A stretch of DNA of 63,143 bases, the filler included, from Folioceros fuciformis (Eukaryota), in NCBI GenBank assembly GCA_049999805.1. It is 11 parts of 11 records of this genome, joined end to end, with 100 filler letters (N's around TTAATTAATTAA, not from the genome) between each part and the next. Parts side by side here need not be neighbours in the genome. Positions count along the whole stretch, not along the records: positions 15,632 to 21,166 come from JBNGIO010006490.1; 10 more parts are not named here. One strand, 5' to 3'. Below are positions 5,630 through 60,022 of this stretch, one piece after another. The position numbers and the translations under genes are program-made. Under the pieces are notes generated by a model. The model made no database searches and was not told where the DNA came from. It was given only the letters and a program-made list of their open reading frames with translations. Position 1 is the stretch's first letter, and each line of letters starts with the position of its first letter.

Positions 5630-5722
5630 GGCAGCAGCCGCCATCGAAACCTAATTACGAAGAGCTCAAGTGGGGGTGTTGGATAGAATAGTTTCGCACC
5701 TCGTAGATTAGGTTTAAAGTGT

Positions 5723-11274: not shown

Positions 11275-11945
11275 ATCATGGCGCTCCACGTCACAACGTT
11301 CTTCTCCACGAGTCCATCAAAGACATGCCGAGCATCTTCTACGTTGCCACACCTTGCATACATGCTTATCAAACTATTGGCTACTGACACATCAGCCAAA
11401 TGTCCCTCTCCTCTGATTTGAGCATGAAGGTCTCTCCCCTTCTCTAAGGCCGGTGTGCCCACACTTGCACATGCCTGCAGGAGACATACAAATGTCACTG
11501 AATTTGGTACAGCGATGCCTTCTTCCTGCGTGACACTGTAGAGCTGAAGGGCATCCTGGCCCTTGCCCTGTTGGGAATACCCTGCAATTAGAGCAGTCCA
11601 CGTCACCACGTCTTTCTGGCCCATTTCACAAAACAATCTTTGGGCATCCTCAAGGCTGCCACACTTCGCATACATGTTCACTAAGCTATTGGCTACAGAC
11701 ACATTAGCCAGATGTCCTTGTGCTCTGATTAGCTCATGGAGCTGCTTCCCCGTCACCAGAGCAGGGGAGCCCACACTTACACATGCCTGCAGGAGGCACA
11801 GATAAGTCACAGAGCTGGGTACAGCCACCCCTCCTTCCAGCATAGCACTGTAGACAAGAAGTGCTTCCTGCCCCATGCCCTGTTGGGAGTACCCGGATAT
11901 CATGGTAGTCCACGTCACAACGTCCTTCTCAACGAGTCCGTCACA
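11275..11945 (-). CDS. PLS-class pentatricopeptide repeat protein (partial)
   Basis: Repeating KDVVTWTxxIxGYSQQG / VPNSVTFVCLLQAC / DVSVANSLISMYARCG motifs. Confidence 0.93.
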
Positions 11946-12189
11946 CCCACTTGGTATCCTCCAGGCCCGACAGGGCCAAGCTCGCCTGCCACGCCGCGAT
12001 ACAGGGAGCAGGAACGAGCAACAGAGGGATGCGCCAGGTATCGCCGAAGGCCCTTCCCCGAAACTCCTCCCCTTCCGTACCAGCACAAGGACGCGGGGGA
12101 CAACCAGTCCCTGCCATCCACCGAAAGACGCCGCATCTTCAGCTGCCGCGCATGTGGCACTTGCAGGCTCTGCTTCCACCACGGGTCGT

Positions 12190-12420
12190 CAAACAACACT
12201 CCTCAAGCACATTCCGTGCGGCTCCCTGATCTTCGTCAAGGCACCAGAGTTTGCAAAGACATTGAGAATGCACGCAGAAGTGCCATAGTCCGCCAAAATC
12301 AGGCCCTCCTGCTCCATTCTGTCCAGACAGAACAAACGTCCATACAGAACAGCCGAGGCCCTCCGTTGCATTCCCAGGAACCAGCGCATTCCATGCCACA
12401 CATTTCCCTGTCACCAGCCA
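12190..12420 (-). pseudogene. Frameshifted, degenerate PPR motifs upstream of the PPR ORF
   Basis: VAWNALVPGNATEGLG then, in another frame, DRMEQEGLILADYGTSACILNVFANSGALTKIREPHG. Confidence 0.65.
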
Positions 12421-12930
12421 TTCCATCGTTGGAAAGGTCACTGCATCCATGGACGTTACATCTACAACACTCGCTCGCGTTCCTTCAGCTTTCCGCCGTC
12501 CCTGGACTCTTTCCTCCGATTGAGGGTAGAGTCCCTGGCTGAATGAACGGTTGAGGGCAGCTGATCTGCACTGCACCTGGTTTGACCAGGATTCAAAACA
12601 AGCAGCTCTCCTCGGTTTGCAGTGCACTAAGTGCGAGAGTCAGTCCGTGCCTGGGTGCTCTCGAATTCAACAGCTTATCCTCAGCCACCAGAGCATCATA
12701 CCTTGCCAGTAGTACTGTCCGCAATGAAATTGTTCCACACTGCCTGACGTGCCCTTGTTCCACCTGAAAGCAAGCCGAAAGATCAAACCATGAACAAGCA
12801 ACACAAGGGCTGCAACAGTTCTTCAAACCAGGCAGATGCGCACGCTTTCCACTGCCTTACTTGTGTGGCACTGGCAAGCTCGCCAGGCTTGAAATGCACC
12901 TGACGCATTTCCGTCACCGGGCCGCTGGGA

Positions 12931-13515
12931 CTAAATCTGGTCTGCATCACGGCTTCGCACAATCAACCCCATCCTACTATTCCCTTCTGATGTAGTCATG
13001 GCATTAAATTTCCAGTCCCGAGGACTACCATGCACCATGATCGATCCGACACTCTTCCAGGCTTTGCTGCTAGTGGCAAGGTTGGCGGTGCCTGGACCCT
13101 GCGCTTTCACGCTTTTGGCAAGACTGCCAGTGTCTCGACAAACATTTATGACAACCACCTTAAGCTTGTTTGCCAAATTCCCGCATTCAGCGATGGGATT
13201 CCAAATAACTTCTTCAACATAAAGCTTCTCCGCCTTGTCTGCTTCACCTAAGCAAACATACTCTCTACCATCGTCTTCAGTCTCACCATGAGCATTAACG
13301 TAAAACAGAAAGAAATCGTCCTTATCGAAGTCAGGATGCCTGACAACGTGCTCCAACGTTGATTTCGCTTCCTTAAGATCGTCCACCACACAGGGGATCT
13401 CAAACTTCAAGGGCACACCACGGAGAAGAACGTCGAGTCGCCCTCTGTCTACCTGTCCTCCATCTCTGCCTTTTCCTATACTGACTGCAAGACCTCGCTG
13501 GTGACCTGCTTTCAC
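12931..13515 (-). CDS. Caspase-like cysteine protease (peptidase C14) domain
   Basis: RGLAVSIG, RDGGQVD..RL..LL...LKFEI, FFLFYVNAHG (His76) and NLANKLKVVVINVCR (Cys126), in caspase order and spacing. Confidence 0.8.
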   Translation of the reverse strand: MKAGHQRGLAVSIGKGRDGGQVDRGRLDVLLRGVPLKFEIPCVVDDLKEAKSTLEHVVRHPDFDKDDFFLFYVNAHGETEDDGREYVCLGEADKAEKLYVEEVIWNPIAECGNLANKLKVVVINVCRDTGSLAKSVKAQGPGTANLATSSKAWKSVGSIMVHGSPRDWKFNAMTTSEGNSRMGLIVRSRDADQI

Positions 13516-14340
13516 CCTTTCGTTTGGATATGATGGTTCCTTCCCTGACTTCAGTAGAGGCGGTCCCTGTGCCTGACTTTGGATACGCTGGTTCCTTCCC
13601 TCAGGTTCTCCACACTCAGTCCTGATGATCCCTTCTACTAGTTCAACTCCAGGACTACCTTCAAGAGAAGCACAAAATGCTGTCAGTTCCGCAACAAAAC
13701 TCTGTTGGAGAAATTCGATCGTTTTGTCTTTGCTCGAGTGACCTCATCAAAATGTCAACACGATCACCAATGTCCCCGTCTCCCCCCCAATATCCCCACT
13801 GCTCTCCAAAAATACGTCCAAAACATAGTAGTTAAATTTGATCAAGTTGCGTGCAATGCTATACAGATGACACTGCATACCCTGGAGTCCATTAAACAAG
13901 ATCTGTCGTAACTTGACCTGCAATGCACAACCACTGGCCATGTCATGAAAGCCAAAGAGAGCATACATCACTAGCGAAATGTCACAGACCTCAGAAGGTA
14001 AACGTACTTGGAATCTTGGAAAGAAGCCTGGACGACAATCGTCTTCGTTTATCTCGGCATTGTACCCACCTCTTTAAGTAGTTGTACTTGTGCACTGTAC
14101 CACCCTTCCAGTCTCTCGGCATTGTAGCCGCCTCCCTAAGTACGTGTACTTGTGCGCTGTATCACCCTTCCAGACCAACTGTCGTTTCCCTTGAAGGTCT
14201 TTACCTTCTTTTCCGTGTCATCCAAGGTGACGGGAACGAAGAATCCAGGGCTAGGATTCGCATCATCTTCATAGCACAAGTTTAGTCTCTTCATCGATAA
14301 TACGAGATCGTTCGCTTCCGTGCTTTTGAGGATCTGGTGA
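13516..14340 (-). pseudogene. TORNADO1-like Roco COR domain, multi-exon, with frame disruptions
   Basis: LVLSMKRLNLCYEDDANPSPGFFVPVTLDD, YLGRRLQCRE, PGFFPRFQ|VKLRQ (GT-AG intron 13918-14007), YSIARNLIKFNYYVLDVFLE, DRVDILMR, FCASLEGSPGVELVEGIIRTEC. Stops at 13744-13749 and a 62-bp duplication at 14052-14173. Confidence 0.75.
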
Positions 14341-15646
14341 CCTGGTCCAAGGTTGCGAGCTTGAGAAGCTTTTGAGGCAAAAGTTTTCTAAGCTGCTGCT
14401 TCCACCTTTCCTTCCCTCCCCCAAATGTCACCTGAGGACAGAACATGACTGTTGCAACACTGCACCTTGCAGGAGAGATGCCTTCCTTCACATGGAAGGT
14501 GGGTCTATGGACCGTAGGATCCCACCACCTGAGTTCTGCTCAGCTCAGCTAGGCTCCCAGCCCATTCATCGTCATCCCTTCCTTTGGACCTTTTTCCTCT
14601 GAATGAGACTGCCCGTTTGGGTTGCTTCAAATCCCACATACCTCGAAAATACACATCATGCCTGCCAAAGGAAGAAAAGTCAGATTGCGCATTCGAATGA
14701 GAAACAGTCTGTATGTCGTTCTGAATTGTGTGTGCATCAAAAGGTCTGCCTCCCGTTGTACTCAGGTTAGCTCAGCTATCGTAAACATAAAGGCGAGCAC
14801 GCTGAAGGATGTAGACGATTCGTCGGCAGAGCGCAGGGAAGGAGTACACAAACTAACAGCCACTACCCGTACAAACTATGTAATTCTCCCATTCACATAA
14901 ACTAACTATGCAATTATCCTATTCAGTGTGTGCCAAACAAGGAGAGAAACAACAGTCTCAAACCCTCAATTTGTGGACCCTGTCCGCCGAATGCTCCACG
15001 TAGAACGGGTCCTGTTCTGAATCAGCTCTCGTCCTCTCCACTTTCAGCCTGTTTGGAACCTTTCGTCCTGAGATTGTCTCTGGAAATGGTCGGGCGTAGA
15101 AGAAATTCCTTCTGCACCTCCGCATTTGAGCATGATATGATGCCATTGGCATTGCCCCGGTCATGAACTTATGTTAGCCGTCAGTGGAGGGGTCAGGTAC
15201 CCCATTGGAGCGGTAGCAGTGCAAGACAGGCCAGGACGAATGGGCCGTTCTGTTGGATGGCTGGCATCCATGTTCCACATCACCGCCCTACAAGAGCTCG
15301 AGTCACAACACAAAACAGCACTGTGCCTTCGGCCCGGTACATCAGTCAGAAGGAAAGGCAAGTTGGCTTGCTGACTGGCCCGGCTAATGAAACCTCTGCC
15401 TACCAATACCGAGATACGCCCCGTTCACAATGCAAAACGACGTTCTTGCCAAACAGGCACAGAGAGGGAGGCGACGTGAGAAGATCGGATCAGAAGCAGT
15501 TCGACACACCAACAAACAGGCAGTACAGTATNNNNNNNNNNNNNNNNNNNNNNNNNNNNNNNNNNNNNNNNNNNNTTAATTAATTAANNNNNNNNNNNNN
15601 NNNNNNNNNNNNNNNNNNNNNNNNNNNNNNNGCCACAACACCTGGT

Positions 15647-18600
15647 TTGCTTGTGGCCTGTTTGTCCTCTGTGTCCAAGAGTACAAATTGGTGGTTCTTA
15701 GACAGTGGAGCGTCTAACCACATGTGTTCCTCTAGAAAGTCCTTTGTGAATTATAAAGTAGCACCCTGTGAGCATGCTGTAGTGCTGGGAGATAATTCTC
15801 ACATACCTATTAAAGGTATAGGTTCAGTGACAGTCACCCTGCAAAATGGGAAGACATGGGAGTTAGAAAATGTACTCCATGTTCCAGCACTCAAGAAAAA
15901 CCTTGTAAGTACCATGGCCTTAGGAAAAACAGGTCGGTACAGAATTCTGTTTGAAGGTTTAGAGTGTGTTATCACAAGTGTGAGTTCACCCTCAGATGTT
16001 ATAGCCAGAGGCACTCCTTTGTATGATCTGTATGTTCTTGATTTTACCTCAGATGTTCAACCAAAAACAGTATATGTAGCTGAGTCTGCAGAGGATAAAA
16101 CAAAAATAGCATTTAGATGGCATTGTAGATTAGGCCATCCAAACATTAAGGCTATGAGGCGGTTGTTGAAGGACCACATGGTTACAGGTTTCTCGGAATC
16201 CAACCTACCAGATTTGGAGCTGTGCGTTGCATGTGTTCATGGGAAGCAGTTTAAATCACACTTTGGATCTGGAAAACCACGAAACAAGACAGAAGTGTTA
16301 GACTTGGTGCATTCAGATATTTGTGGTCCTATGTCAACACCAAGTTGGGGAGGAGCCAAGTATTTCGTTGTGTTTGAAGATGACACAACGCATTTCACTG
16401 TCACAGAGTTACTGAAGCACAAAGGAGATGTGTTTGACAGTTTTAAACGATATTTGGCTTACGCTGAGAGACAAACTGGACGCAAGCTGAAATGTATTCG
16501 TTCAGACAATGGGAAGGAGTACCTGTCATCAGCATTTCAAGAATACTGTCAGGAGCGTGGCATAACTCGACAGCTCACCATTCCTTATCATTCTGACATG
16601 AATGGCAGAGCAGAACGTCGACATCGTACTATACAAGATACAGCTAGAGCACTTCTGTTTCAGGGGAGGCTATCAACACGTTTCTGGGCTGAGGCAGTTC
16701 AAGTGGCTACTTATCTGCAGAATAGGATTGCAGTCTCTTCACTTCCCAATGTTACTCCCTTTGAAGCTTGGACAGGTGTGAAGCCTGATATTTCACATCT
16801 TCGTGTTTTTGGCAGTACAGCATATGCACATATACCAGATCAGCTTAGAACCAAATTTTCCTTTAAGTCTAAGCGGCATGTTTTCATTGGGTACACACCT
16901 GGTATTCATGGCTACAAATTGTTTGAGCCATTCTCCCGTAAAGTCATTCATGCACGAACAGTTGCTTTTGATGAGAGTTCAGTCCTTAAGCCTCCTTCTA
17001 CTGGTGGTGATTCTCCTGTTTCACATCCTGACATTGATGTTCAGTCCTCTTTAGATGGATTAGTGGACCTGGATGAAAAAGACCTTATAGATGTTGTGGA
17101 GTTTCCTACCTTTGATGCATCTGATGTTTCTGGTGATTTAGATCCAGGCCTTCATCCAGGTCCACCACCTGTTGTACCACCAGATCTTGCTGTTCCTGTT
17201 CCAACTGATCCTCCTCATGTTGCTGCTGAGGCTGACTCAGCATCTGACGATGACTCAGTGGCCCTTCCTCCTGATCCTCCTCCTGCAGCTGGTGAGCTAG
17301 ATGTAGATGATCCTGTAGAATATGTCCTCCCACCACAGCCAAGGAGATCAGCTAGGGTTCATAGAGGGCGAGATCAGTGGACTGAAAAACCATATGAGGC
17401 TGAAGACTGGCGTACCAGGAGAGTGCCTCGGGCAGTGGGAGTAGATCCTACTGCTGTTGTAGATGAGCTCGCCCATGTGTCTATTCAGCCTGGATATGAG
17501 CCTCAATCTTACCAAGAAGCTATCACGGGACCTGAATCTCGACATTGGATTGCCGCTATTACTTCTGAATATAACTCCCTTATACACAATCAGACTTGGG
17601 AGCTATGTCCCCCGCCTAAGGGGAGGAAAATCGTCAGCAGTAAATGGGTTTTCAAACTCAAATATAAAGCTGACGGTACTATAGCGAGGTACAAAGCTCG
17701 CCTGGTTGCCCGTGGTTTCTCTCAAGTGCCGGGGCTGGACTACAACGAAACTTTCTCCCCTGTGGTTAAGTCACAATCTCTGCGCGCCTTGTTTGCAATG
17801 TCAGCTTTCTTTGGCTTGTTCATTCATCATATGGACGTGAAGACAGCCTTTTTGCATGGAAAGCTTGAAGAAGAGATCTTCATGCAACAACCTGAAGGGT
17901 ATGAAGAACAAGGGCGTGAGGATTGGGTCTGCAAGTTACTGAAAACAATCTATGGCCTCAAACAGTCACCAAGAGCTTGGTACCAGGTTATAGATGAGTT
18001 TCTTCGTGATCTTGGCTTTAAGAAGAATTCTGCAGACTCGAATGTGTATCTCCTGCAACAAGAATCAGGTTATGTAGTGTTAGCTCTCTATGTTGACGAC
18101 TGCATTTTGCTTGGAACCGACCTAGACGGCATAAACAGGGTCAAAGGCCTCTTATCTGGAAGGTTTGATATGGTAGATGTTGGTGAGCTTTCGTATTGCC
18201 TTGGTACCCAACTCCTGCGAGATCAATCTAGTGGAACTCTTGTTATACATCAGGAGAAGTACATCTTTGATATGCTGTATAAGTATAAGCTCACAGAGGC
18301 TAAGCCTGCAGCAACACCTATGGAGGCAGGTCTTAAGCTCACTCTTGAACATTCTCCTGTGACTGAGTCCGAGAAACAGGAGATGGAGGGTGTGCCTTAT
18401 GCGCAGGCTGTTGGCTCACTTATCTTCTGTTCAAATAACACGAGGCCAGATATTGCTATGCCTGTCAGTATGACATCTCAGTTCTTAAAGCAGCCAGGAA
18501 GAATACACTGGTCAGCTGTTAAAAGAGTTTTGAGGTACCTGAAGGGTACAAGTAATCATGGTATACATTTCACAAAACAGCAGTATGAAGGTGAATCGCT

Positions 18601-19087
18601 TACATTGCTCGGGTATTGTGATGCCGACTGGGCTGCAAATTCTGACTCACGGAAGTCTGTCTCCGCTTATGTTTTCTTGCTGGCTGGAGGTGCTGTTACC
18701 TGGTCATCAAAGAAGCAAACGACAGTTTCGTTATCTTCAACCGAGTCAGAGTATTATGCTCTTACACAGGCAGCAAAGGAAGCCATATGGCTTCGAAGGT
18801 TGCTGAAGGATTTAGGGCAGGAGCAATTGCAGCCAACAACAATCTATTGTGACAGCACAGGTGCCTTGTCCCTGGTGGAAAATCCAGTTTTCCATGCAAG
18901 GACAAAACATATTGAAGTCCATCATCACTTTATCCGCGAGGCAGTGTCTTCTGGCCAGGTTCGTCTTGAGTATATTCCTACAGACTCAAATGCAGCAGAT
19001 GTCTTAACAAAGGCCTTGCCAAAGAGTAAACATTTGCAGTTTAAAGAAGCTTTAGGAGTCCTAGACTCCTCTTACCTTTCAAGTTGA
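15647..19087 (+). CDS. Copia Pol (PR-IN-RT-RNase H), 5'-partial
   Basis: WFLDSGAS, WHCRLGH, VHSDICGP, RSDNGKEY, YKARLVARG, LYVDDC, YCDADWA, NAADVLTK. Confidence 0.96.
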   Translation: MLVACLSSVSKSTNWWFLDSGASNHMCSSRKSFVNYKVAPCEHAVVLGDNSHIPIKGIGSVTVTLQNGKTWELENVLHVPALKKNLVSTMALGKTGRYRILFEGLECVITSVSSPSDVIARGTPLYDLYVLDFTSDVQPKTVYVAESAEDKTKIAFRWHCRLGHPNIKAMRRLLKDHMVTGFSESNLPDLELCVACVHGKQFKSHFGSGKPRNKTEVLDLVHSDICGPMSTPSWGGAKYFVVFEDDTTHFTVTELLKHKGDVFDSFKRYLAYAERQTGRKLKCIRSDNGKEYLSSAFQEYCQERGITRQLTIPYHSDMNGRAERRHRTIQDTARALLFQGRLSTRFWAEAVQVATYLQNRIAVSSLPNVTPFEAWTGVKPDISHLRVFGSTAYAHIPDQLRTKFSFKSKRHVFIGYTPGIHGYKLFEPFSRKVIHARTVAFDESSVLKPPSTGGDSPVSHPDIDVQSSLDGLVDLDEKDLIDVVEFPTFDASDVSGDLDPGLHPGPPPVVPPDLAVPVPTDPPHVAAEADSASDDDSVALPPDPPPAAGELDVDDPVEYVLPPQPRRSARVHRGRDQWTEKPYEAEDWRTRRVPRAVGVDPTAVVDELAHVSIQPGYEPQSYQEAITGPESRHWIAAITSEYNSLIHNQTWELCPPPKGRKIVSSKWVFKLKYKADGTIARYKARLVARGFSQVPGLDYNETFSPVVKSQSLRALFAMSAFFGLFIHHMDVKTAFLHGKLEEEIFMQQPEGYEEQGREDWVCKLLKTIYGLKQSPRAWYQVIDEFLRDLGFKKNSADSNVYLLQQESGYVVLALYVDDCILLGTDLDGINRVKGLLSGRFDMVDVGELSYCLGTQLLRDQSSGTLVIHQEKYIFDMLYKYKLTEAKPAATPMEAGLKLTLEHSPVTESEKQEMEGVPYAQAVGSLIFCSNNTRPDIAMPVSMTSQFLKQPGRIHWSAVKRVLRYLKGTSNHGIHFTKQQYEGESLTLLGYCDADWAANSDSRKSVSAYVFLLAGGAVTWSSKKQTTVSLSSTESEYYALTQAAKEAIWLRRLLKDLGQEQLQPTTIYCDSTGALSLVENPVFHARTKHIEVHHHFIREAVSSGQVRLEYIPTDSNAADVLTKALPKSKHLQFKEALGVLDSSYLSS

Positions 19088-19141
19088 GTGGGAGGTAAGT
19101 TCTGGCTGTCAGTGTCATGGAGGTGATTTCTTTTATAAGAC

Positions 19142-20281
19142 CTAGAAGGTCGCAGACACAGAGTTATCATCAGAGTCTGAGCTACTGCTATCTGGTTCAC
19201 AAAAAAAAAAAAAAAAAAAAAACAGGCTTCGTCTATCTCCAGCTCTGTTTCTTCTCAGCAGTTCCAGGTAGTTGGGATCAAACTCGTGCTCTATTGGTTC
19301 CTCGTCAGTATCCTCATCCTCGGTTGCGTAGTCCACACCCGCTCCTTCATGCATTCTCTGTCGGGACTCTGTGGATAGCAGATGACACTGAAGTCAGGTT
19401 GTAAGTACACAGAGCTACCTCAAGGCACAGAAATAGTGTGCAGATAAATATCAGAGATGAGCTTGTGACTTACTGTAGAATGAAATAAAATTCCCGTTTT
19501 CTCCACCCCATCTGAACCAGTCCTCTCTCACCATAGCAATTCCTGTAATTGTGTAGACATAAGCTTCAGGAGTCAGAGGGTCGTCTATTCCATTGCCGTC
19601 AGTTACCAGCCTCACAGTCCTGGTCCTGTGTCCTCTAGGTAGGGTGTATGGCCTTGGATTGTGTGGTGCAGGCAACACGACGTACTCCTCCTCCTCCTGT
19701 GGTGGAACACGAACTGCGTTCAGAGGACCCTCAGGTGTGAAGCGGCTGTATCTAACAGTGGGAGCTGCAATAGGAGGTGTGGACGTAAGCCGTGGAAGTT
19801 CAGGTCTTGAGGTCCGTACACCAGCAGCTTGGAGCTGACTCCTGAGGACATAGATTTCCTGGGTCAGCAGAGCCTCGCGTTCTTCCATCTGGTGGACACG
19901 CCTCATCCAGTGAGTGCTCACACGCCATCCTTCTCGTTCCACATGTCGGAGCCACCTGGGAGCCCTTCTGTGCCGTGGACACAAAGGAGCTGTTTCAGGG
20001 CAGACACACATTGGAGTGTCAGCAGCAGTGTCAGGTGGCGCAGGATGTGGAGCGAGGTATACAGCAACTCGGGCCGGAAGCTCTTCTCCATTAGCCGCTG
20101 AAGCTTCGTGGGCAGCCGGTTGCTCTTGAGCTAGTGGGGCTGCATGCTGCACCTGGTGCTCCTCAGTCTCCACCTTAGTGACAGCCTCAAGCATCCGGTG
20201 GCCGACGTCTTCGTCCTCAGAGGAGCTGTCCAGTGCAATTGGCTGACGAGCTGAGCCCATGGAAACGCCGTTGTTCACCAT
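19142..20281 (-). CDS. Putative spliced antisense gene inside the copia element (exons 20281-19474 and 19368-19142, about 344 aa), unknown function
   Basis: Two same-frame ORFs bridged by a 105-nt GTAAGT...CTGAC...CCACAG intron (19473-19369) that removes the intervening stop. Confidence 0.65.
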
Positions 20282-20700
20282 CTCCGTGGCAGGTAGTGAC
20301 AACGAGCACAGTTGAGCTCACGCTGAGCATGGAAGCGAAAGCTGGGCTCTTATGCTGTGGTTGAGAGTAAAGCCGCACGAAATTCCGACTGTACGCGAAC
20401 AGAGTGAGACTCTCGTTTCTTTTGTTGTTGCGCTCGAGTGCTCAAGTAATTTATGTTCAAGCAAGGCCAACGGGTTCGTGTGATATACGGCTAAGACATA
20501 CACAATGAGTGGGAGTGTTGAGAAAATAAATGCTTGTTATATATACATTGTTAGTATGTACTTAGGGTTAGCTCATTAGGTTTATGTGACGGTTATAACT
20601 GCTCATACTCCTAGACATATTTGTGGGTGTGCTACCACACAAATTTAATATATTGTATTTTGTGCGATATGCCTGCATGATCGTGTTTACAAAATTTACA

Positions 20701-20982
20701 TATTGCAGCACCATTGGGTCCATCCAATGCCTCACGATATGTAGCCGGTTCACCATCAACCGTGAGTAGAGCATGTGCAAGGAGGGCCTTGGGATCACAT
20801 GAAGTAGAACTAGTAAAAGCAAAAAAATCAGCATTAATGGAATTATCAACCATATTGTCTTCAGTAGGAATTGCATAATCGGGCAAATTTCCAGTGCTGG
20901 TATCTGCCAAAATATCTGTAAGTGCCCGTGTACGTATATGGGATCTAGATATGGGGGGCTCAGGAGACCAACGAACGGGAGC
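20701..20982 (-). pseudogene. Older copia pol remnant (IN-RT linker) interrupted by the LTR at 20700
   Basis: ALLTVDGEPATYREALDGPNGAA stops abruptly at the LTR boundary. Confidence 0.7.
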
Positions 20983-20992
20983 NNNNNNNNNN

Positions 20993-21166
20993 TGAGCAGT
21001 TACCATCACGCTTGCACGCGCAAGCGATCACGGCTCAGATGATGGGCGTGAGCACTAGCACTACTCTCGCTCATTTTCTTGTTCTTGGCTCTTTGTCCAC
21101 CACCAAAGAATTTGGCAGCTTCCGGATGATCATTTCTGCATGAAGGCTGCTGAGATGGAGAGTCTG
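20993..21166 (+). repeat. Paralogous copy of 57157-57335 (probable 5' end of a PPR-family gene)
   Basis: Near-identical DNA ATCACGCTTGC..GCAAGCGATCACGGCTCAGATGATGGGCGTGAGCACTAGC.... Confidence 0.8.
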
Positions 21167-21266
21167 NNNNNNNNNNNNNNNNNNNNNNNNNNNNNNNNNN
21201 NNNNNNNNNNTTAATTAATTAANNNNNNNNNNNNNNNNNNNNNNNNNNNNNNNNNNNNNNNNNNNN

Positions 21267-24500: not shown

Positions 24501-26172
24501 GAGTCCTCACCAAGTCGGTTTCTGGCCGTACTCCATATGAGTGTTGGCATGGGAGCAAGCCTTTAATTTCACATCTTCATGTTTTGGTTGCCCTGCTTAT
24601 GCTCTTGTCCCATTACAGCTTCGCGACAAGCTTGATGCTCGTGCTTGCAAGTTGGTGTTTGTCGGTTATGGCGATGACCGCAAAGCCTACAAGCTCGTGG
24701 ACTTGGACTCTCGGATTCCTATCTACGCCCGCACTGTCACCTTTGATGAAGCTAAGATAGTGCCTGCTATTGCGACTCCATTTGAGCCTCCTCTTGACGT
24801 GCAAGATGGTGCTTCCTTTGGCTCGAGCACTCCTCGCTCTTCTGGTGATACGTCTATTGATCCCTTTGTTCAGACCTTTACTTTTCTGACTGGTGGTGTT
24901 CCTCCTCCTCCTATGGCTCCTATCCCTCAAGCAGTTTTGGTGCCGCCAGTTGCTAGTTCTGCTCCCCAAGTGCAGCCCACTCCTGAGTCCTCTGTTCCTG
25001 CTCGAGAGGGGGACATGGAAATAGACCACGAGGTAGTATATGAGGACCCCCGTATGGAACAAGGTGATGTTGAACATGTTGATTTTGAACACGTGGTGCC
25101 CCATGATATTCCTCAAGCACCTGTCACTCCTCCATCCCCACCTAGGCCCCCGGCTGCTCTTGAGCATAGATATCCTACTCGTGTGCGCCAGCCTAGGCAT
25201 CTCTAGAAGGAACAACCATTTGATATTGAGTTTAATCAAGCTAGTTTAACCTATGTTAATTCTTTGGATGCTCTCTATGCCTTAAGTGTTTTTGCTGCAG
25301 AAGGAGATCCTTTAACCTTACAAGATGCATACTCGAGACCCGAGGGAGCCAAATGGAAGCTAGCTATTGGCGATGAGTACAACTCATTACTTAAAAACAA
25401 CACTTAGACTTTGGTTAGTTTGCCTAAGGGTAGGACCACTGTCACGTGCAAATGGGTTCTTAAAACTAAGTTCCAGGAAGTAGAGCCACGAATTCGCTAC
25501 AAGTCGAGATTAGTATCTAAGGGATATAGTCAAAAAGAGGGAGTGGATTATCAAGGCGATAAGGTCTACTCACCCGTCGTCAAGGCTGCATCAGTTAGAA
25601 TGCTCCTTGCTTTATGTGCTGAACTAAACTTGGAGATCTATTAGCTTGATGTGTGTACAACCTTTCTGTATGGTCATCTCAAGGAAGAGATCTACATGGA
25701 TCAACCCGAGGATTACGAAGATAAGGTTTGTCCACAAAAGGTGTGTAAACTTAATCACTCAATTTATGGCCTTAAGCAAGCCCACGACTGTGGTATGAGA
25801 GAATGGATTCATATATTAAGAAAATAGGTTTTGTTCAAAGTGAAGCAAATACTAATATTTATGTGCTACGCAAGGATAGCTCACCTGTTCTAGTTGCACT
25901 CTACGTGGATGACTTAGTCATTGCAAGCAATAACGTTGAACTAGTCAACAAGATAAAAGCTGATCTCAGCAGGGAATTCAAGATGAAGGACCTGGGAAAG
26001 GTCAAGTATATCTTTGGCATGCATGTACATAGGGATACCACAAGTGCTATCTATCTTCACCAAGGTAGATATGTAGCCGGTATGCTCAAACGCTTCAACA
26101 TGGAGAATGCTAGGGCGTCAACCACCCCAGGTGCGTTTGGAGTCAAGCTCTCATCTGCCTCATGTCCCCAAT
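21531..26172 (+). mobile_element. Decayed Ty1/copia element: 5' LTR 21531-21781, PBS 21782-21794, fragmented gag-pol from 22299
   Basis: TGTT...AACA LTR, TGGTATCAAAGCC, gag FKEKDRFNG, WHCRLAH, VHVDLCGP, RSDNAGE and LYVDDL spread over many frames. Confidence 0.9.
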
Positions 26173-43429: not shown

Positions 43430-43617
43430 NNNNNNNNNNNNNNNNNNNNNNNNNNNNNNNNNNNNNNNNNNNNTTAATTAATTAANNNNNNNNNNNNNNN
43501 NNNNNNNNNNNNNNNNNNNNNNNNNNNNNTTTTCTTTACCTAAATTATCATCACCTATGAGCTTATATATGTTATAGGCCTCATTTAAAAGCTAGAATTC
43601 ATCCCTGCATTCATAGT

Positions 43618-46600
43618 GAGTGGGAGTGATGAAATAAGTCTAGATTTAGGGCACTATTCATTAGGGCCTCTTAACTTTAATTATCTACCTAGGGTTATTT
43701 AGGTAGTTATTAGCTATAGTGGTTATATTAGTTATAACCACTTACGGTTACAACTACTTATGGTTACAACCACTTATAGTTGTAACCGCCCAACTACCTA
43801 GCCTATATAAAGGCTTGTACTTTACTTCTTATATACATTCAATTACATTCTAAGATTTGCATATAAGAGCAAGGCTAGATTTTCATCATGGTATCAGAGC
43901 ATCTTGCTCTTCATTATGCAAGTGCAGCTTTAAGCATTTAAGGAGCGCATCTAGGAGACATCTTTTCCAATCCAGCACCTCGCTAGATGGATTGTGTCTC
44001 TTTTATAATTGCTGCTCTCTTATGTTTTCTTCTCATGCAAATATCTCTTTTCCCATAATGTTCATATGCACTAATTCTTCGTCTCCTCTTTATGGATTTG
44101 ATTTATTTTAATAGGAGGAGGCCTAGAATTAGGAAAAGAAATTGCCCTGCAAGACAACAAGATCAAGTTAGGATTAAGAGCAATAGAAGTTCACAAATTA
44201 TAGCAAGAGAGATAGATGAGATATCTTCTCGCATAGCTAACTTCATTGCATCTATTCTAATTTCTAAACCAGACCAAGGGAAGTTGATTAAGCTTGCTAG
44301 ATGTGATTTGCTAGAAGTATTTAGCCCAATCCATGTTAAGGCCTTAGAATTAGCTATTCAACATATCCCTAATTTGAGAGCTGGTGCTAACGCTTCTAAA
44401 TTCTTTTGTCTACAAGGCCAAAATATAGAAACTCACCAAATTCATGACCTAGATAGAGAATTATCTTCTCTAACAATTCAACATCTTGAATTCAAGAGAA
44501 AACTAACAGAACTTGGGGTAAGGGTGTCCAATCTCTCTAAATTCAAAGATGTGCAGGAACTTTCTAGTAGGTCATCATCTCCTGATGCAGGTTACCGTGC
44601 AAGGGAGGAGTTTCGGGCTTGCAATAGAGAAGATGGAAAGCTGTACCGCCGAGGCTTAGTCCTCTAGATCACCTGCTATGGCTGGAGTATCTAATATTGA
44701 AGAAGAATTTTCAGCGTCACCAAATACACCCATGATGGATCCTTCTGGGAGTTCTAATCATACCTTGATTAATCATTATGGTAACAGCTTCAAAGAGAAG
44801 GATAGGTTCAATGGAAAGAATTATTATGTTTGGGCTATACGGATGAAAGGAGCCTTGCGACAACGAGATCTCTGGGACATAGTCGAAGGAAGACTTCCCA
44901 GACCCACTGAAAGATTTGAAGCACACCTTCGAACGTCCTGGGACGTCAGGGACGAGAAGGCACAAGACCTTATCATCAGTGGACTTTCGGAGCAGATGGT
45001 GATACAAGTTGGTCATGCAAAGACCTCCCACGACATGTGGACTCACCTTGCTCAACTCTACTCCTCCATGGATGTTATGAGTATTGTTGCCGCCTCCCGT
45101 AATTTCCGCAACCTTCAAATGAAGGAGTCCGATTCCATTGAACGCCATATTAGTAATTTCCGACTAGCAAGATCTCAACTTGAGGCTGCAAGTGGCATTC
45201 CTGTCCATGAGTTGGAAGCATATGTTATCCTTCTATCATCTTTACCGCCGTCTTATAGAGCTTTTGTTACAACTCAAAATGCTGTTCTCCGTAATGCAAG
45301 ACGTGAGGCAGATGAGAATCCACAAGCAGAAATTAAGCTCAGCATCGCCGAGCTCATAGGAGCATTGATGCAAGAGGAATCAAGTCGGCGACACTCCAGA
45401 ACCAATAAGCAACAGGTGATGTTCACTGGAAGGGGTAATGGAAGAGGACGAGGCAGAGGCCGAGGTTCCACTTCATATCGACCCCAGACTTCCAATGACA
45501 ACTCTTGAAGACGAGAGACTTCTTCTTCAACACCTGCTAAAGGTACCAAGAAGAAAGGCATCATTTGTAATTGGTGCAGAATACCAAACCACCTGGAGAA
45601 GGACTGTTACAAGAAGAAAAATGGTGAGCCTAGAAAAGAGGCTGCGCCTGGAGCTCATATAGCTGTGAAGAAGACATCTTCCACAACACCTTCGGCTCTA
45701 ACTATATGTTTGACTTCATCAAAGTCATCAAATCCAAACTGGTACTTGGATAGTGGAGCCACTGCACACATCTGTAATAATAGACGTCTGTATCAATCTT
45801 ATAATTCTGTTACAGGACATCAGAGTGTCTTATTAGGTGATGATCATAACCTTCCTATTTCTGGTATAGGTTCGATAAAACTCAGATGTTCTTCTAGTCA
45901 AATCCTTGTTCTTTCCAATGTTCTTCATGTCCAGCCATGTGTAAGAATTTAGTGTCAGCTACTTGTTTATGCATAGAACATAACATACAAGTCATTTTAG
46001 ATGCAGATAGTTGTGTTCTCACTTACTCTCCTAGTGAATCTCTCAATATCTGCACAGGCACAATAGAGGACGGGTTATATAAACTTGCAGTCCAAGTAGA
46101 ATCATCACATGATAGAGTTAATTTAGCTTCTCAGAACTCTATCACGTCCAACACTACTTTACTTGGCATTGTAGATTAGGACATCCTAATAGCCAAAAGC
46201 TTGTCCAAATGTCTAAGGGAAACCTTTATAGACACCCTTCCCTTCCAAAGATAGAACCATTATCATGGTGTGAAGCTTGTGTCCTTACTAAAAGACATCA
46301 AGTCCCTTTCAAAAAAAATTCTCCTCAGCGGGCCAAGGTACCCTTAGAGTTGGTTCACACCGACATTTGTGGCCCAATTTCTGCACCATCTTTCAGCGGC
46401 TGCAGATATTTTATTACTTTTATTGATGATTATTCCCGTTTTACCACAACATACATCCTCAAGCACAAAAGTGAAGCTTTTCAATACTTCAAGGATTACA
46501 TGATCTGGGCAGAACGACTTACAGAGAAGAAACTCAAAACCCTCCGTTCCGATAATGGAGGCGAGTTTATCTCCAATGCTTTTACAGATTTTTGTCGAGC

Positions 46601-48867: not shown

Positions 48868-50600
48868 ATGGTGCGGACCTCCAACAATACTCAGGTGGGT
48901 TTTGGTAGTAGGGGACGACCCACGAGGGCAGCCAGCTCTCCCCAAACCAATGTTCCATCCTTTTCTTGCTTTGGGGGCCAACTGAACTCAAGGGATTTGA
49001 TAGACCTACGGACTTGGGCATGTGATGCAAACATCCAGCTTGACTGAATATGTGGCAGTCACTGGTTGTATATTCATGAAGGCTTGGTGAAGGAGTGCTA
49101 TACCAACCTACAGCAATCGAAGGAGGAGTTGGAAGCCCAACCTAAACGAAACGCGAGGACTGACCCTCGGTGTTGGACTATCCGGAGCATCTAACAGGTG
49201 TACGGTAGGTCAGAAGAGGAGAGCGATGGTATTGGGATCCTGGATAAAACCATAGATGGGCGGAGGTCACCCAGCACCACCCTACCATCTGGGACACTAG
49301 AATTGCTGTTGGGAGGGGAGTTAGCAAGAACCAAGAACGGGTGGAGGACTGAGAGGATCAAGGAGCTCAAATGGCGGTTGTTCACTAAGGTGGTTCTTGG
49401 ATTGGTGAACTATCAACGCACCTCATATTTCAGCAATGCTTTCCTCCACTTCCTTTGGAGAGTGACTCAAGGAGCAAAGCCAGACTGGGGGTTAATTATG
49501 TATGAGGCGTATACCTGCCACAGGGAGAAGTTGCTCAAGCCGAACGGTAGGGAGGGGGGGAGTGCACATCCTTGCTACCTCTCGACTTACTTGGTGCACT
49601 TATGGAAGACAGAAGGGTTGTTAACACAAGAGGAGTTGGAGAAGGCGGAACAACCTTTTGTAGTTGTCCCGTTGCAAGGGGAGGCTTTTATTTTCGGTGG
49701 AGTGTCGACCCCTCTTACGGATGAGGAGTCCCCACTTGATTCCGAATCAGCCATGGCAGCCTATGATGAGTCTGATGAAGATGACACCTCGTTGATACGA
49801 AGACCTAGGGAGCAGCAAAGGGACCGAAGGCTACCATCAGTCACCACCCCCGCAGCCCTAAATTCCGCCCCAACTGAGATGGAGACAGTGAGGGATCCTG
49901 GACCAAGCCAGCCAATAGTTGAGGTAGGGTACCAGGTAGGGGATTTGGCGATGACACTAGTAGTGCAAGCACACAGTGGAGCACCAGATTTGGGGAGAAG
50001 GAGCCCATAGAATTGGGAAGCAGCCCGAGGAGCACATGCCACAAGCCAAGGTAACGATACTTCGTTGGGAGTGTGGAGCAACATCATTCAGTGTGGCCAA
50101 CAGCTACAACACATCAATTGGGGAGAGGCCCGTGCAATGATTGCAACCCTACTACAGGAGCACATAAGTCGGGATGCAAACCAGGCACGACTAGAATCCA
50201 AAGTGCAGGAATTGGAAAAGGAGCGAGAACAACATCTCCTCAAGGATGGTGAGCAAAGGCAAGGACTAGAGAAGTTGACCCAGCAGGTGACCACGTTGCA
50301 AACTTCCCAACAAGGTTTATCACATGAGATCATTGCATGTCGAAGGGACCTCGCCTAGTCTAAGGAAACTAGGAAGGTGGTGGAGGAACAGCTACGGGAA
50401 CAAGTCTACGTTGCAAAGGATTTACAAGGCAAGCTAGATGAGTTGGAGGCACAGAATGCTAAAGCGAACCAAGAACTCCAGCAACGACTTGAAGCAGGGC
50501 AACGAGAGCGAGTAAAGAGGGAACAATTGACCATCCAATTACAAGACCTTCAGCAGGAGAAAGCACAACAAGAAGCTGAGCACCAGACCAAGATTCACAG
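48868..50600 (+). pseudogene. ~580-codon retrotransposon accessory-type ORF with four in-frame stops and a C-terminal coiled coil
   Basis: One continuous frame with TGA 49045, TAA 49192, TAG 50008 and TAG 50356; motifs LVKECYTNL and FLWRVTQGAKPDWGLIMY; long E/Q/L heptads. Confidence 0.6.
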
Positions 50601-58240: not shown

Positions 58241-59269
58241 TGGCCAGGCAGCTCTTGAAGGATGAAGAGGCTGAGGTTATGAGGGGCAGGAAACAGAATC
58301 AGGAGCAGCTGCAAGCGCTGGATAAGGTGACCAAGAACATTACCGAATTGCGTGAAGAGCAGGATTGTTGATGTGGAATGTGACTATGGGACTGTTTCCA
58401 ATTGCCATGATTTCCCCGGAGCAGAAAGTAAGCATGTCCGAAACCTTGACACTTGTGGGGGATGATGTTTCTGATGAAGGACCAACTCTGCTGAAGGGTG
58501 CTAAAAGTGCCATTTCTCATTGGAAACCAAGGAGGCCTCGCTGTAACCGGGCCGCACAGAGCACAATGGAGGTCGGAAAGATCCCCCCTGTGTATGGTCT
58601 AGGTTTTTGGGGATCACACGAGTAGCATTGACCCCTTGATAAGTGCCAAAGAGACTTGAAAGAGACTTGATCTGGAATCCGAGACGACTGAAGGTCTACT
58701 TGGGAACCACAGCCTCGAACATGTACAGATGTATGTCTCCCCGACTGATCACTCACAGTCCTTAATGAATGGCGTGTCGAGTTGGGTTCCGGTGAGCCGG
58801 TTCATGGGCGGTGATTTGAAATCGTATGGCCCATAAGTGGCGCCCACCATTTCCCAGACCATATTTAGCTCGCCTTGCTGCTCTGGGTAAGGTTGTGGTA
58901 ACTCGGCTTTCTACTTTGGGGAAGGTTCTGGTAGCTCGGTTCCGCTTTCGATTGGTTCCTAGGGGTCCGGGGCTGCGCCTACCTGGTTCTGCTGCTGTAC
59001 AGACATAGATCGGTGGGGATTTCAGCTTGAGCGCCGCCAACGCCGTGCCCACCCGCCTTTGCGAACGTCGCTGACAAGCAGGTATGCCTGCCCGCTCTCA
59101 GCTCGCCTCTCTGCTTCGGGTAAGGTTTGGGTAGCTCGGTTCGGGTTTGTTGCTGGTTTCTAGGGGTCCGGGACTGCTTGAGGCTGGTTCTGACGGCTGG
59201 TCTCTGATGTACAGACCTCTGTCTCCTCTCCCTGGCCTACTCCCTTAGGACGCTGATTTGATATATAGA

Positions 59270-60022
59270 ATGGCTCCTGTGGCTCAAGACAACAAGAACC
59301 GCCTGAGTTCCATGTTCTATGGTCTTGTGTTTGATGTGTTTAAAAACTTAGACGAAACTCACGTGACCAGAGCCCTAGCTATCGGGGAACAGATCTCTCA
59401 GCTCGAGAGCACTGCCCGGATCTCTCCGCTCGAGAGCACTGCCCGGATCTCTCCGCTCGAGAGCACTGCCCAGATCTCTCAGCTCGAGAGCACTGTCCAA
59501 GAGGCTCTTGCTGTGGGTTCTGTGAAAGACGAACTCATCCGAACTCTGGAGGAACATGTGGTAAGGGTTTTGGAAGAACAGGTGCGGGATTTGCAGGAAC
59601 ATGTGGTAAGGGTTTTGGAAGAACAGGTGCGGGATTTGCGCCTCAAGTTAGTACAGAGCAAGGGGCTTACAACGCTCCGAGGTTTGTGGGAACATCTTCA
59701 GGAGGAGCTCATTATTGCTCATGCTTTGGAGGGTAGGGATTGGTTTAAGAACTGGAAGGAGATCTTACATTCGAATAGGCCTCTGCAGGATTGCCTAGAG
59801 GCTTCAGCTGGATGGAGCCACCCGGTACAGGCAGCAAAGCTCGTTCAGATCTATAGAGTCCTGTCGGAGCATATTCATGAAGAAAAATCGAGGTTAAGGT
59901 TTGAGTTAAGTCGAACAGGCGGGTACATTCTCCTTGACCAACATCATCCATTGACATGTGACCAGGCGTTGGCTACCATATGTGTAGCTTCTAGCTTAGG
60001 TTTGAATGTTAGACTTAGTTAG
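59270..60022 (+). CDS. Hypothetical coiled-coil protein with internal 27-bp (x4) and 42-bp (x2) repeats
   Basis: 250-aa ATG ORF; frame-preserving repeats ISPLESTAR and EHVVRVLEEQVRDL; GT-AG intron-like segments upstream. Confidence 0.6.
   Translation: MAPVAQDNKNRLSSMFYGLVFDVFKNLDETHVTRALAIGEQISQLESTARISPLESTARISPLESTAQISQLESTVQEALAVGSVKDELIRTLEEHVVRVLEEQVRDLQEHVVRVLEEQVRDLRLKLVQSKGLTTLRGLWEHLQEELIIAHALEGRDWFKNWKEILHSNRPLQDCLEASAGWSHPVQAAKLVQIYRVLSEHIHEEKSRLRFELSRTGGYILLDQHHPLTCDQALATICVASSLGLNVRLS

Follow-up and report, generated by a model that had tools for sequence, protein, structure and literature searches.

Here, we analyze an antisense open reading frame (ORF) located downstream of pol in a Ty1/copia retrotransposon of Folioceros fuciformis (NCBI GenBank assembly GCA_049999805.1), which an earlier inspection of the DNA alone (hereafter, the sequence-only reading) had interpreted as an intron-containing gene maintained by the element. 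The window, namely the whole stretch of DNA analyzed (63,143 nucleotides [nt]), is a 63-kb string of unrelated contigs separated by 10 spacers of structure N44-TTAATTAATTAA-N44 (e.g., 15532-15631 and 21167-21266), with further gaps (two of 10 N and one of 100 N). Such a spacer stops all six frames, and "genes" on either side of a spacer are without physical linkage; the contig of the element spans 15632-21166 only and carries a 10-N gap at 20983-20992. From 15632 to 19087, its plus strand encodes a pol (protease barrel, integrase, reverse transcriptase [RT], and RNase H) whose 5' part is cut by the contig end: its 1167 codons, uninterrupted between the first base of the contig and a TGA at 19085-19087, harbor the Pfam domains Pol_BBD (residues 1-70), gag_pre-integrs (102-176), rve (193-291; E = 1.4e-10), SH3_retrovirus (351-420), and RVT_2 (623-868; E = 6e-73). 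This domain order in a single open frame assigns the host element to Ty1/copia, as had been proposed. Its nearest relative in protein libraries is only ~53% identical in pol, and the element is single-copy at the 31-mer level. Because the contig begins inside pol, gag and the 5' LTR (long terminal repeat) are missing and a pair of LTRs cannot be demonstrated; direct repeats of at least 30 nt were found nowhere besides the N spacers.

The antisense ORF occupies positions 19451..20281 of the minus strand (276 codons plus a stop; protein P0001) and displays a coding-like codon pattern. It starts with an ATG at 20281, in the context GGAGATGG, and runs over 269 codons plus one base to 19474, where the sequence-only reading had placed the end of a 269-codon exon that is indeed present; left unspliced, it continues to a stop at 19453-19451, giving 276 amino acids (aa), and from stop to stop the frame has 288 codons. 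An ATG-initiated ORF of at least 276 aa was obtained in 0 of 1000 dinucleotide shuffles of 19088-20600 (mean 82, maximum 213). Within 19451-20317, the frame of the ORF contains one stop, its own, against 9, 10, 13, 11, and 15 in the other five frames, so that the stretch is not simply stop-poor. Its GC content at the three codon positions (0.66/0.51/0.49), with G at 0.37 of first positions, resembles that of the known genes of the window, and a codon log-odds score trained on the window's 14 known coding ORFs reaches 0.090 per codon in the predicted frame, the best of the six (z 4.38; equaled by 0 of 1000 shuffles). As controls for this score, 13 of the 14 known ORFs were positive in frame in a leave-one-out test, and two ORFs antisense to known genes (11733-12542, plus strand, 269 aa, antisense to a PPR gene; 24613-25245, minus strand, 210 aa, antisense to a copia pol) scored below zero in their own frame and above zero on the other strand, a pattern also found for a third, unannotated ORF at 61712-62398. 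Overall, the first exon or 276-codon frame is beyond chance, and the unspliced frame most likely represents coding sequence that is real, or was so until recently. Convincing statistics for an ORF of a single copy are insufficient to name an accessory gene.

That the ORF could lack any coding history, being a chance or decaying frame opened in a GC-rich, stop-poor stretch of spacer in which splice-like motifs are coincidental, appears improbable to us: the openness is confined to one frame, none of the shuffles reached the length, and the codon-position pattern and score are those of known genes and not those of the antisense control ORFs. This possibility nevertheless draws on the presence of at least six other Pfam-less ORFs of at least 200 aa in the window, on the extreme Arg/Lys ratio of the predicted product, whose Arg, Pro, and Ala contents are near the expectation from base composition, and on the fact that the frame straddles the border between sequence shared with related copies and sequence specific to this one (see below). 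The single-copy status of the element would fit as well, since an intact frame would need no selection if the insertion were young.

The ORF lies in an unusual spacer between pol and the 3' end of the element. An exact 10-nt sequence, TGAGTGGGAG, is found at 19085..19094 on the plus strand, where it comprises the pol stop and a purine-rich run resembling a polypurine tract (PPT), possibly a relic PPT, and again at 20506..20515, where it may be the working PPT; the two copies are 100% identical, are spaced by 1421 nt, and enclose a 1411-nt spacer (19095..20505) that contains the whole antisense ORF, a run of 22 A, and the proposed intron. Copia LTRs start with TGTTG after the polypurine tract, a rule that only three sites support here. 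With one mismatch allowed, the window contains three occurrences of AGTGGGRGTGTTG where 0.2 would be expected (none of 100 shuffles gave three), one of these sites (5669-5681, as CAAGTGGGGG-TGTTGGATAG) standing ~40 nt past the stop of another copia pol. In the contig of this other copia, no 5' LTR copy was found with which the LTR start could be validated. We accordingly infer from the 20506-20522 junction that 20506-20515 is the PPT and 20516 the first base of a putative 3' LTR (20516..20700, plus strand) beginning with TGTTGAG, the end of which, at ~20700, is set only by the start of a higher-depth repeat match at 20701. The position claimed for the ORF, antisense between pol and the 3' LTR, thus holds to the extent that this LTR is correctly placed. 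Logan contigs show loose ends at 20570 and 20701, and from 20701 onward a repeat contig of ~four-fold depth, which differs from the window before that point, matches it, suggesting that the sequence past ~20700 is part of another repeat. A degenerate copia fragment, corresponding to the linker just upstream of RT, lies at 20668-21027 on the minus strand, immediately following the putative LTR, with weak copia matches (7 of 123 proteins, best E = 5e-6). At another of the three sites, TGAGTGGGAG is followed by TGATGAAATAAG (43617-43640), 88 nt into a contig (43530-47793) that runs on into a copia gag-pol; this order of 3' end, PPT, LTR, and gag-pol suggests either that a repeated element was assembled in circular permutation or that tandem elements have an LTR in common.

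The exact 10-nt direct repeat at its two ends makes the spacer look inserted or duplicated at the PPT, and we propose that it would have arisen in this way. The pol-PPT spacer of this copia lineage is in this respect variable, insertion-prone, and bounded by a duplicated PPT, and the doubled PPT that surrounds the insert gives a modest yet tangible hint as to the origin of such spacers. An insert consisting of a DNA transposon with terminal inverted repeats was considered and rejected, only short, imperfect, and scattered inverted repeats being present and none at the insert ends.

To compare the element with its relatives, we relied on Logan contigs of the same genome from two DNA runs, X1 and X2, which represent one sample that is possibly the assembly's own source; contigs were aligned with a floor of 80% likeness, and only two to three sibling copies were seen. 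Within the window itself, blastn of 19100-20982 and tblastn of the product returned no other copy, only the self match and two trivial matches at E >=4. Contigs of 3622 nt in both X1 and X2 span 16948-20569 with five and seven other letters, respectively, and no gap, so that the order of pol, ORF, and PPT is reproduced by a second assembler, as is the length of the A22 run. A sibling contig of 2712 nt (X1) matches pol over 17678-19078 with 263 other letters (~81% identity), and its 1626-nt X2 counterpart matches pol over 18763-19078 with 56 other letters in 316. Past 19078, 347 unalignable letters replace 19079-19450 in the sibling contig, a segment that holds the proposed branch site, acceptor, and second exon as well as A22. 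Alignment resumes over 19451..19706 at ~79% identity (53 other letters in 256), a block that corresponds to the last 77 codons of the first exon, the proposed donor, seven read-through codons, and the unspliced stop. The siblings then jump from 19706 to 20499 (2712-nt contig) or from 19702 to 20490 (second contig), each joint being found in both X1 and X2, and thereby skip 792 nt (19707..20498) that carry codons 1-192 with the ATG and 217 nt upstream of it, and with them the acidic N-terminus, the Cys motif, and the predicted helix of the product. To judge from these alignments, the family has a common pol-PPT spacer, older than the split of its sub-lineages, and the ATG and codons 1-192 appear to be either missing or unalignable in the siblings. 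The full ORF was therefore found in none of the two to three siblings detectable above the 80% floor, when conserved ORFs of this kind are expected in most copies of a family. The claim of a maintained gene, for which loss of the splice sites in sibling elements had been named as a refutation, thus fails at least in part, these siblings having other letters in place of the acceptor and second exon, with the ATG and codons 1-192 missing or unalignable.

The reading that we favor, albeit tentatively and at somewhat less than an even chance, is that the ORF is a copy-restricted passenger of the eORF-3'R / aORF-3R kind in a low-copy Ty1/copia lineage, and not a maintained accessory gene. The ORF would have been acquired or extended within the copia lineage, the 792-nt difference then representing a gain here and not a loss in the siblings, and it would be dispensable for retrotransposition. 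Since the full frame would be private to this copy or sub-lineage, with siblings keeping only its last 256 nt, its behavior is that of a passenger, unlike that of a family gene. If expressed, it would be transcribed from an antisense promoter at the LTR-proximal end, where a TATA-like TATATA (20540..20545, minus strand), which lies within the putative LTR and ~260 nt upstream of the ATG, is a candidate promoter element. The product would be an Arg-rich, Lys-poor, and largely disordered protein of ~30 kDa with one long helix.

Several observations weigh against this passenger scenario. The siblings are ~80% identical to the element when the alignment floor is itself 80%, and a fast-evolving, disordered N-terminal half could hence be present yet unalignable; moreover, the content of the 19706>20499 joint is unspecified and up to ~630 letters could lie between its ends. 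An ancestor endowed with the full gene could just as well have given rise to the siblings by deletion. The shared block aligns like pol, in contrast to its left flank, and its limit falls exactly on the stop codon of the unspliced frame, as would fit a maintained gene under selection for the C-terminal part of its protein. In the predicted frame, positive codon scores were obtained for the shared part of the ORF (z 2.1) as well as for the second exon (z 1.95). No source was seen for the 792 nt, which no other X1 or X2 contig bridges or covers at >=80% likeness, and transduced fragments, in the accessible part of the literature, are usually sense-oriented (PMC7264820). Finally, the lack of homologues is weak evidence when the libraries' closest sequence to pol is only ~53% identical.

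An alternative, which we rate as rather unlikely, is that the ORF is a maintained accessory gene, spliced or not, and that the siblings are deletion derivatives or have an N-terminal half diverged past 80%. Such a gene would encode a regulatory protein that evolves fast, is produced from an antisense transcript, and perhaps binds nucleic acids via its Arg-rich stretch and its CxCx6CxxH motif; the anti-silencing or targeting role that the sequence-only reading offered as an example is conjectural. The coding statistics of the 276-codon frame, the completeness of this frame with an ATG in the GGAGATGG context, and a position and orientation matching those of known aORF-3R genes as far as their description goes (PMC7264820) are all consistent with it, as is a 256-nt block over the C-terminal 77 codons that aligns at ~79% across sub-lineages (pol, ~81%), next to an unaligned 19079-19450, and ends at the unspliced stop. 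Against it stand the two sibling contigs that jump from 19702/19706 to 20490/20499, in which the ATG, together with Cys motif and helix, is absent or unalignable, and the 347 other letters that replace the branch site, acceptor, and second exon. A cis-acting RNA structure was also considered as an explanation of the 256-nt block and rejected (z 0.22 and 0.23 on the two strands); no Rfam match was found in 18900-21166.

The intron on which the idea of a spliced gene depends deserves separate consideration. All of the motifs described by the sequence-only reading are in place on the minus strand: a 105-nt intron (19369..19473; 57% A+T, 34% T) would open with a GTAAGT donor at 19473-19468, carry CTGAC at 19397-19393, whose branch A stands 25 nt before the 3' end, and close with a CAG ending at 19369. 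The downstream frame is in phase, and the acidic second exon (19142..19368, minus strand) was found to end, convergently with pol, at a stop (19144-19142) that is 54 nt from the pol stop at 19085-19087, very close to the ~55 nt announced. This exon has a marginal codon score, reads the T22 run as seven Phe, and lies in an 83-codon stop-to-stop frame (19393..19142). The run itself (A22 on the plus strand, 19201..19222; T22 on the ORF strand), which Tandem Repeats Finder detects, has an identical length in the X1 and X2 Logan contigs that span it (0 gaps). An origin of A22 as the poly(A) tail of a captured retrocopy is excluded by the geometry, the run standing ~105 nt from the first repeat on the plus strand and being T22 on the ORF strand.

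What did not withstand scrutiny is the frame extension. Among the 877 GT..AG pairs that start from the last part of the ORF with a spacing of 60-600 nt, 273 lengthen the frame by at least 30 codons and 63 by at least 60 codons, all reaching the same 83-codon frame, so that little weight attaches to the joint presence of GT..AG borders, a branch site, and a frame that stays in phase over the junction. In frame, 26 of 1000 shuffles did as well as the second exon (z 1.95), a number that rose to 78 of 1000 when the best of the six frames was taken. The donor chosen by the sequence-only reading is the best-looking of the candidates, and the T content of the intron (34%) exceeds that of its flanks (14-26%); this T enrichment and the in-frame score of the second exon speak for a maintained spliced gene, and the 63 of 877 pairs giving a like extension speak against it. 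Nor are the splice sites and second exon kept in the related copies seen, as siblings align across the donor to 19451 and not over the branch site, the acceptor, or the second exon. The intron and second exon are thus not above chance, the evidence for them being at the level of motifs; they fall outside the supported unit, and the intron is unproven under every reading. Because the block common to siblings passes through the donor down to the unspliced stop, the 276-codon unspliced frame is favored as the unit, if any. On the whole, a maintained and intron-containing antisense gene, with a C-terminal beta-rich domain conserved like pol and a disordered, acidic and Arg-rich N-terminal half evolving too fast to be aligned, seems to us quite doubtful.

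The composition of the 792 nt skipped by siblings raises the question of a foreign origin. With a GC content of 0.557 and an observed/expected CpG ratio of 0.69, against CpG ratios of 0.38 in pol, 0.32 in the shared block, and 0.32-0.44 in the rest of the element, this segment is nearer to host ORFs than to the element that carries it (a PPR ORF of the window has GC1/2/3 of 0.62/0.48/0.54). It could accordingly be a captured host-gene fragment, acquired once in antisense orientation and with its intron intact, via template switching or insertion at the PPT. We give this scenario little credence, even though the 792 nt are private to this copy among the contigs compared, carry a coding signal, and fit the occurrence of transduced ORFs in one or few copies, as reported in the available part of the source (PMC7264820). 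By an established logic, an antisense intron would moreover escape the splicing of the element's RNA. However, the GC-rich island starts at ~19550-19600, inside the shared block, and not at 19706, and the C-terminal part of the frame is common to siblings, together with some of the spacer, and is hence older than the 792 nt. Furthermore, 19928-20464 is covered at >=80% by no X1 or X2 contig besides the own locus and the siblings joining across it, and no homologue was found in any protein library searched, which is a weak test in that the host proteome is apparently absent there. The usual sense orientation of transduced fragments, as described in the accessible part of the literature (PMC7264820), is a further difficulty.

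The predicted product informs these alternatives only to a limited extent. The Cys/His motif reported by the sequence-only reading, MCVCPETAPLCPRH, is present in the antisense product, and the prediction of a protein without transmembrane helix, and hence not env-like, is corroborated by a maximal 19-residue Kyte-Doolittle mean of 0.62, with no hydrophobic segment. The product is rich in Pro, Ala, Arg, and Glu, with 27 Arg for one Lys and an isoelectric point of 5.9, a composition that is near a plain translation of GC-rich DNA and in this sense counts against a maintained gene. In Pfam at E <=1, no family matched the 276-aa product or the 83-aa downstream frame, including Transposase_28 (PF04195) and SMC; none of 1622 candidates from a word-indexed protein library reached E <=0.01; HMMER returned no match at E <=0.001 among 1.84 billion representative proteins; the 174 pattern matches in metagenome contigs yielded none confirmed by tblastn; and the best match among PDB sequences had an E value of 0.75. 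In the ESM Atlas, the whole protein had a best match of 0.84 and a recognition of 1355, in the range of shuffled proteins (91 of 100 known-family proteins reached 2300), and the C-terminal 85 residues had no usable match. A single-sequence AlphaFold2 model gave a mean predicted local distance difference test (pLDDT) of 42.9 and a predicted TM-score of 0.21, with a long helix at 123-152 and three short strands near the C-terminus, so that the modeling suggests no confident fold. The absence of homologue, domain, and confident fold is what would be expected of a chance ORF, and the 0 homologues in 1.84 billion representatives, the 0 Pfam families, the pLDDT, and an Atlas recognition below 2300 all tell against a maintained gene. 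Still, the homology blanks weigh little, given the ~53% identity of the closest relatives of pol and the fact that a host ORF with a caspase domain is also without relative. This 270-aa frame (12931-13743, minus strand; Peptidase_C14, E = 3.4e-08) has no relative at E <=1e-5 in the word-indexed protein library, which indicates that the proteome of the organism is poorly represented there.

The maize Grande and rice RIRE2 elements are Ty3/gypsy retrotransposons. Together with Silene Retand, whose gene carries a TRP28 domain, and Phaseolus PvRetro13, they provide the examples of aORF-3R, where the gene is maize gene23 in the case of Grande (PMC7264820, PMC11963269, in the parts available). In these accounts, conserved genes of this type are found in all or most copies of a family and transduced ones in one or few (PMC7264820). 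The ORF described here resembles these examples by its position between pol and the 3' LTR, its antisense orientation, its lack of cellular similarity, an enlarged pol-3' LTR region, and a promoter presumed to lie upstream of the ORF, as far as the accessible portions of their descriptions go. It differs from them in that its host is Ty1/copia, when Retand is Ty3/gypsy (PMC11963269) and no example in those portions is described as Ty1/copia; in that theirs are reported in most copies and across species, when this ORF was seen complete in one copy only; and in the size of the spacer, 1.4 kb here against 2.9-6.6 kb reported for Retand. Unlike the Retand/Tat type, it also has no Pfam match and neither a Transposase_28 nor an SMC domain.

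With regard to Ty1/copia elements, the available part of the REXdb account reports extra ORFs (eORFs) of at least 250 codons outside the polyprotein in 582 elements, forming 45 similarity groups; they are described there as highly heterogeneous, sorted according to position and orientation, and for the most part without known domains (Neumann et al. 2019; PMC6317226). The statement of the sequence-only reading that antisense extra ORFs are known mainly from Ty3/gypsy elements is hence only partly right. Like these eORFs, the present ORF belongs to a copia element, exceeds 250 codons (276) outside the polyprotein, and does not come from a tandem-repeat region, Tandem Repeats Finder detecting only A22 in 19000-20750; no intron is described in the part of the REXdb account available (PMC6317226). 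Unlike SIRE, the best-known copia case, whose eORF is in sense orientation (eORF-3'F) according to the same partial account, it is antisense, lying on the strand opposite to pol between the pol stop at 19087 and the PPT-like repeat at 20506-20515 that would border the LTR. By its position, orientation, length, and lack of tandem repeats, the ORF belongs to the already described eORF-3'R / aORF-3R class, from the conserved members of which it departs in that it was not seen complete in the two to three sibling copies compared. Among the literature matches listed, judged by titles and abstracts and with subscription journals outside the scope, none describes a copia antisense ORF with an intron.

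Retroviruses offer another point of comparison. The antisense gene of human T-cell leukemia virus (HTLV) is spliced, and an intron on the antisense strand would likewise survive replication here. With the retroviral antisense genes transcribed from the 3' LTR (HTLV; PMC7264820), the present ORF also has in common an antisense frame at the 3' end of a reverse-transcribing element and a possible promoter in or near the 3' LTR; there is, however, no similarity in sequence or domains, and the copia ORF is known from its DNA alone. The likeness to gene transduction, as in maize Bs1 and others, resides in a foreign-looking internal sequence present in one or few copies (PMC7264820, as far as accessible), with 792 nt of deviant composition in our case; the difference is that transduced fragments are there said to be usually in sense orientation and to have a recognizable cellular donor, when no donor or homologue was found here. 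From the perspective of retrotransposon evolution, maintenance of the frame across the family would bring a copia member to the antisense accessory genes of LTR retrotransposons, whose functions remain unknown. A true intron would be an uncommon sign that an antisense gene is expressed within a retroelement, and an intron-containing maintained gene would be the copia counterpart of the Grande/Retand genes and of the retroviral antisense genes, with an antisense intron kept through reverse transcription.

Sequencing runs of the same genome provided further observations on the locus. At 20012 and 20061, contigs of X2 and of another run, X3, differ from the window and X1 agrees with it, one difference being synonymous (P90, CCA>CCG) and the other changing V74 to A; the two differences probably reflect alleles and are too few for selection to be judged. 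X3 is bisulfite-like: all 31 listed C>T places with X3 support are in CHH context, and X3 contigs have about as many other letters as CHH sites (134 vs. 130 over 19597-20569; 99 vs. 104 over 19379-20011). This suggests, albeit indirectly, that CG and CHG cytosines remained unconverted over pol and the antisense ORF alike and that methylation of the locus resembles that of a silenced transposon, the individual positions inside the ORF being unlisted. A further run, X4, guessed to be RNA, gave three matching contigs, all on conserved parts of pol at <90% likeness and none on the ORF, and is uninformative on expression.

The other contigs of the window contain many copia fragments as well as host genes of plant type, which encode PPR repeats, an LRR protein carrying LRRNT_2, and the caspase-domain ORF mentioned above. 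Four of their ORFs, at 60386-61410 (minus strand), 49195-50010, 59249-60022, and 61322-62113 (plus strand), encode 257-341 aa without Pfam match, have positive in-frame codon scores, and may be unrecognized transposon proteins; the first of them, with 0.162 per codon, has the highest codon score in the window.

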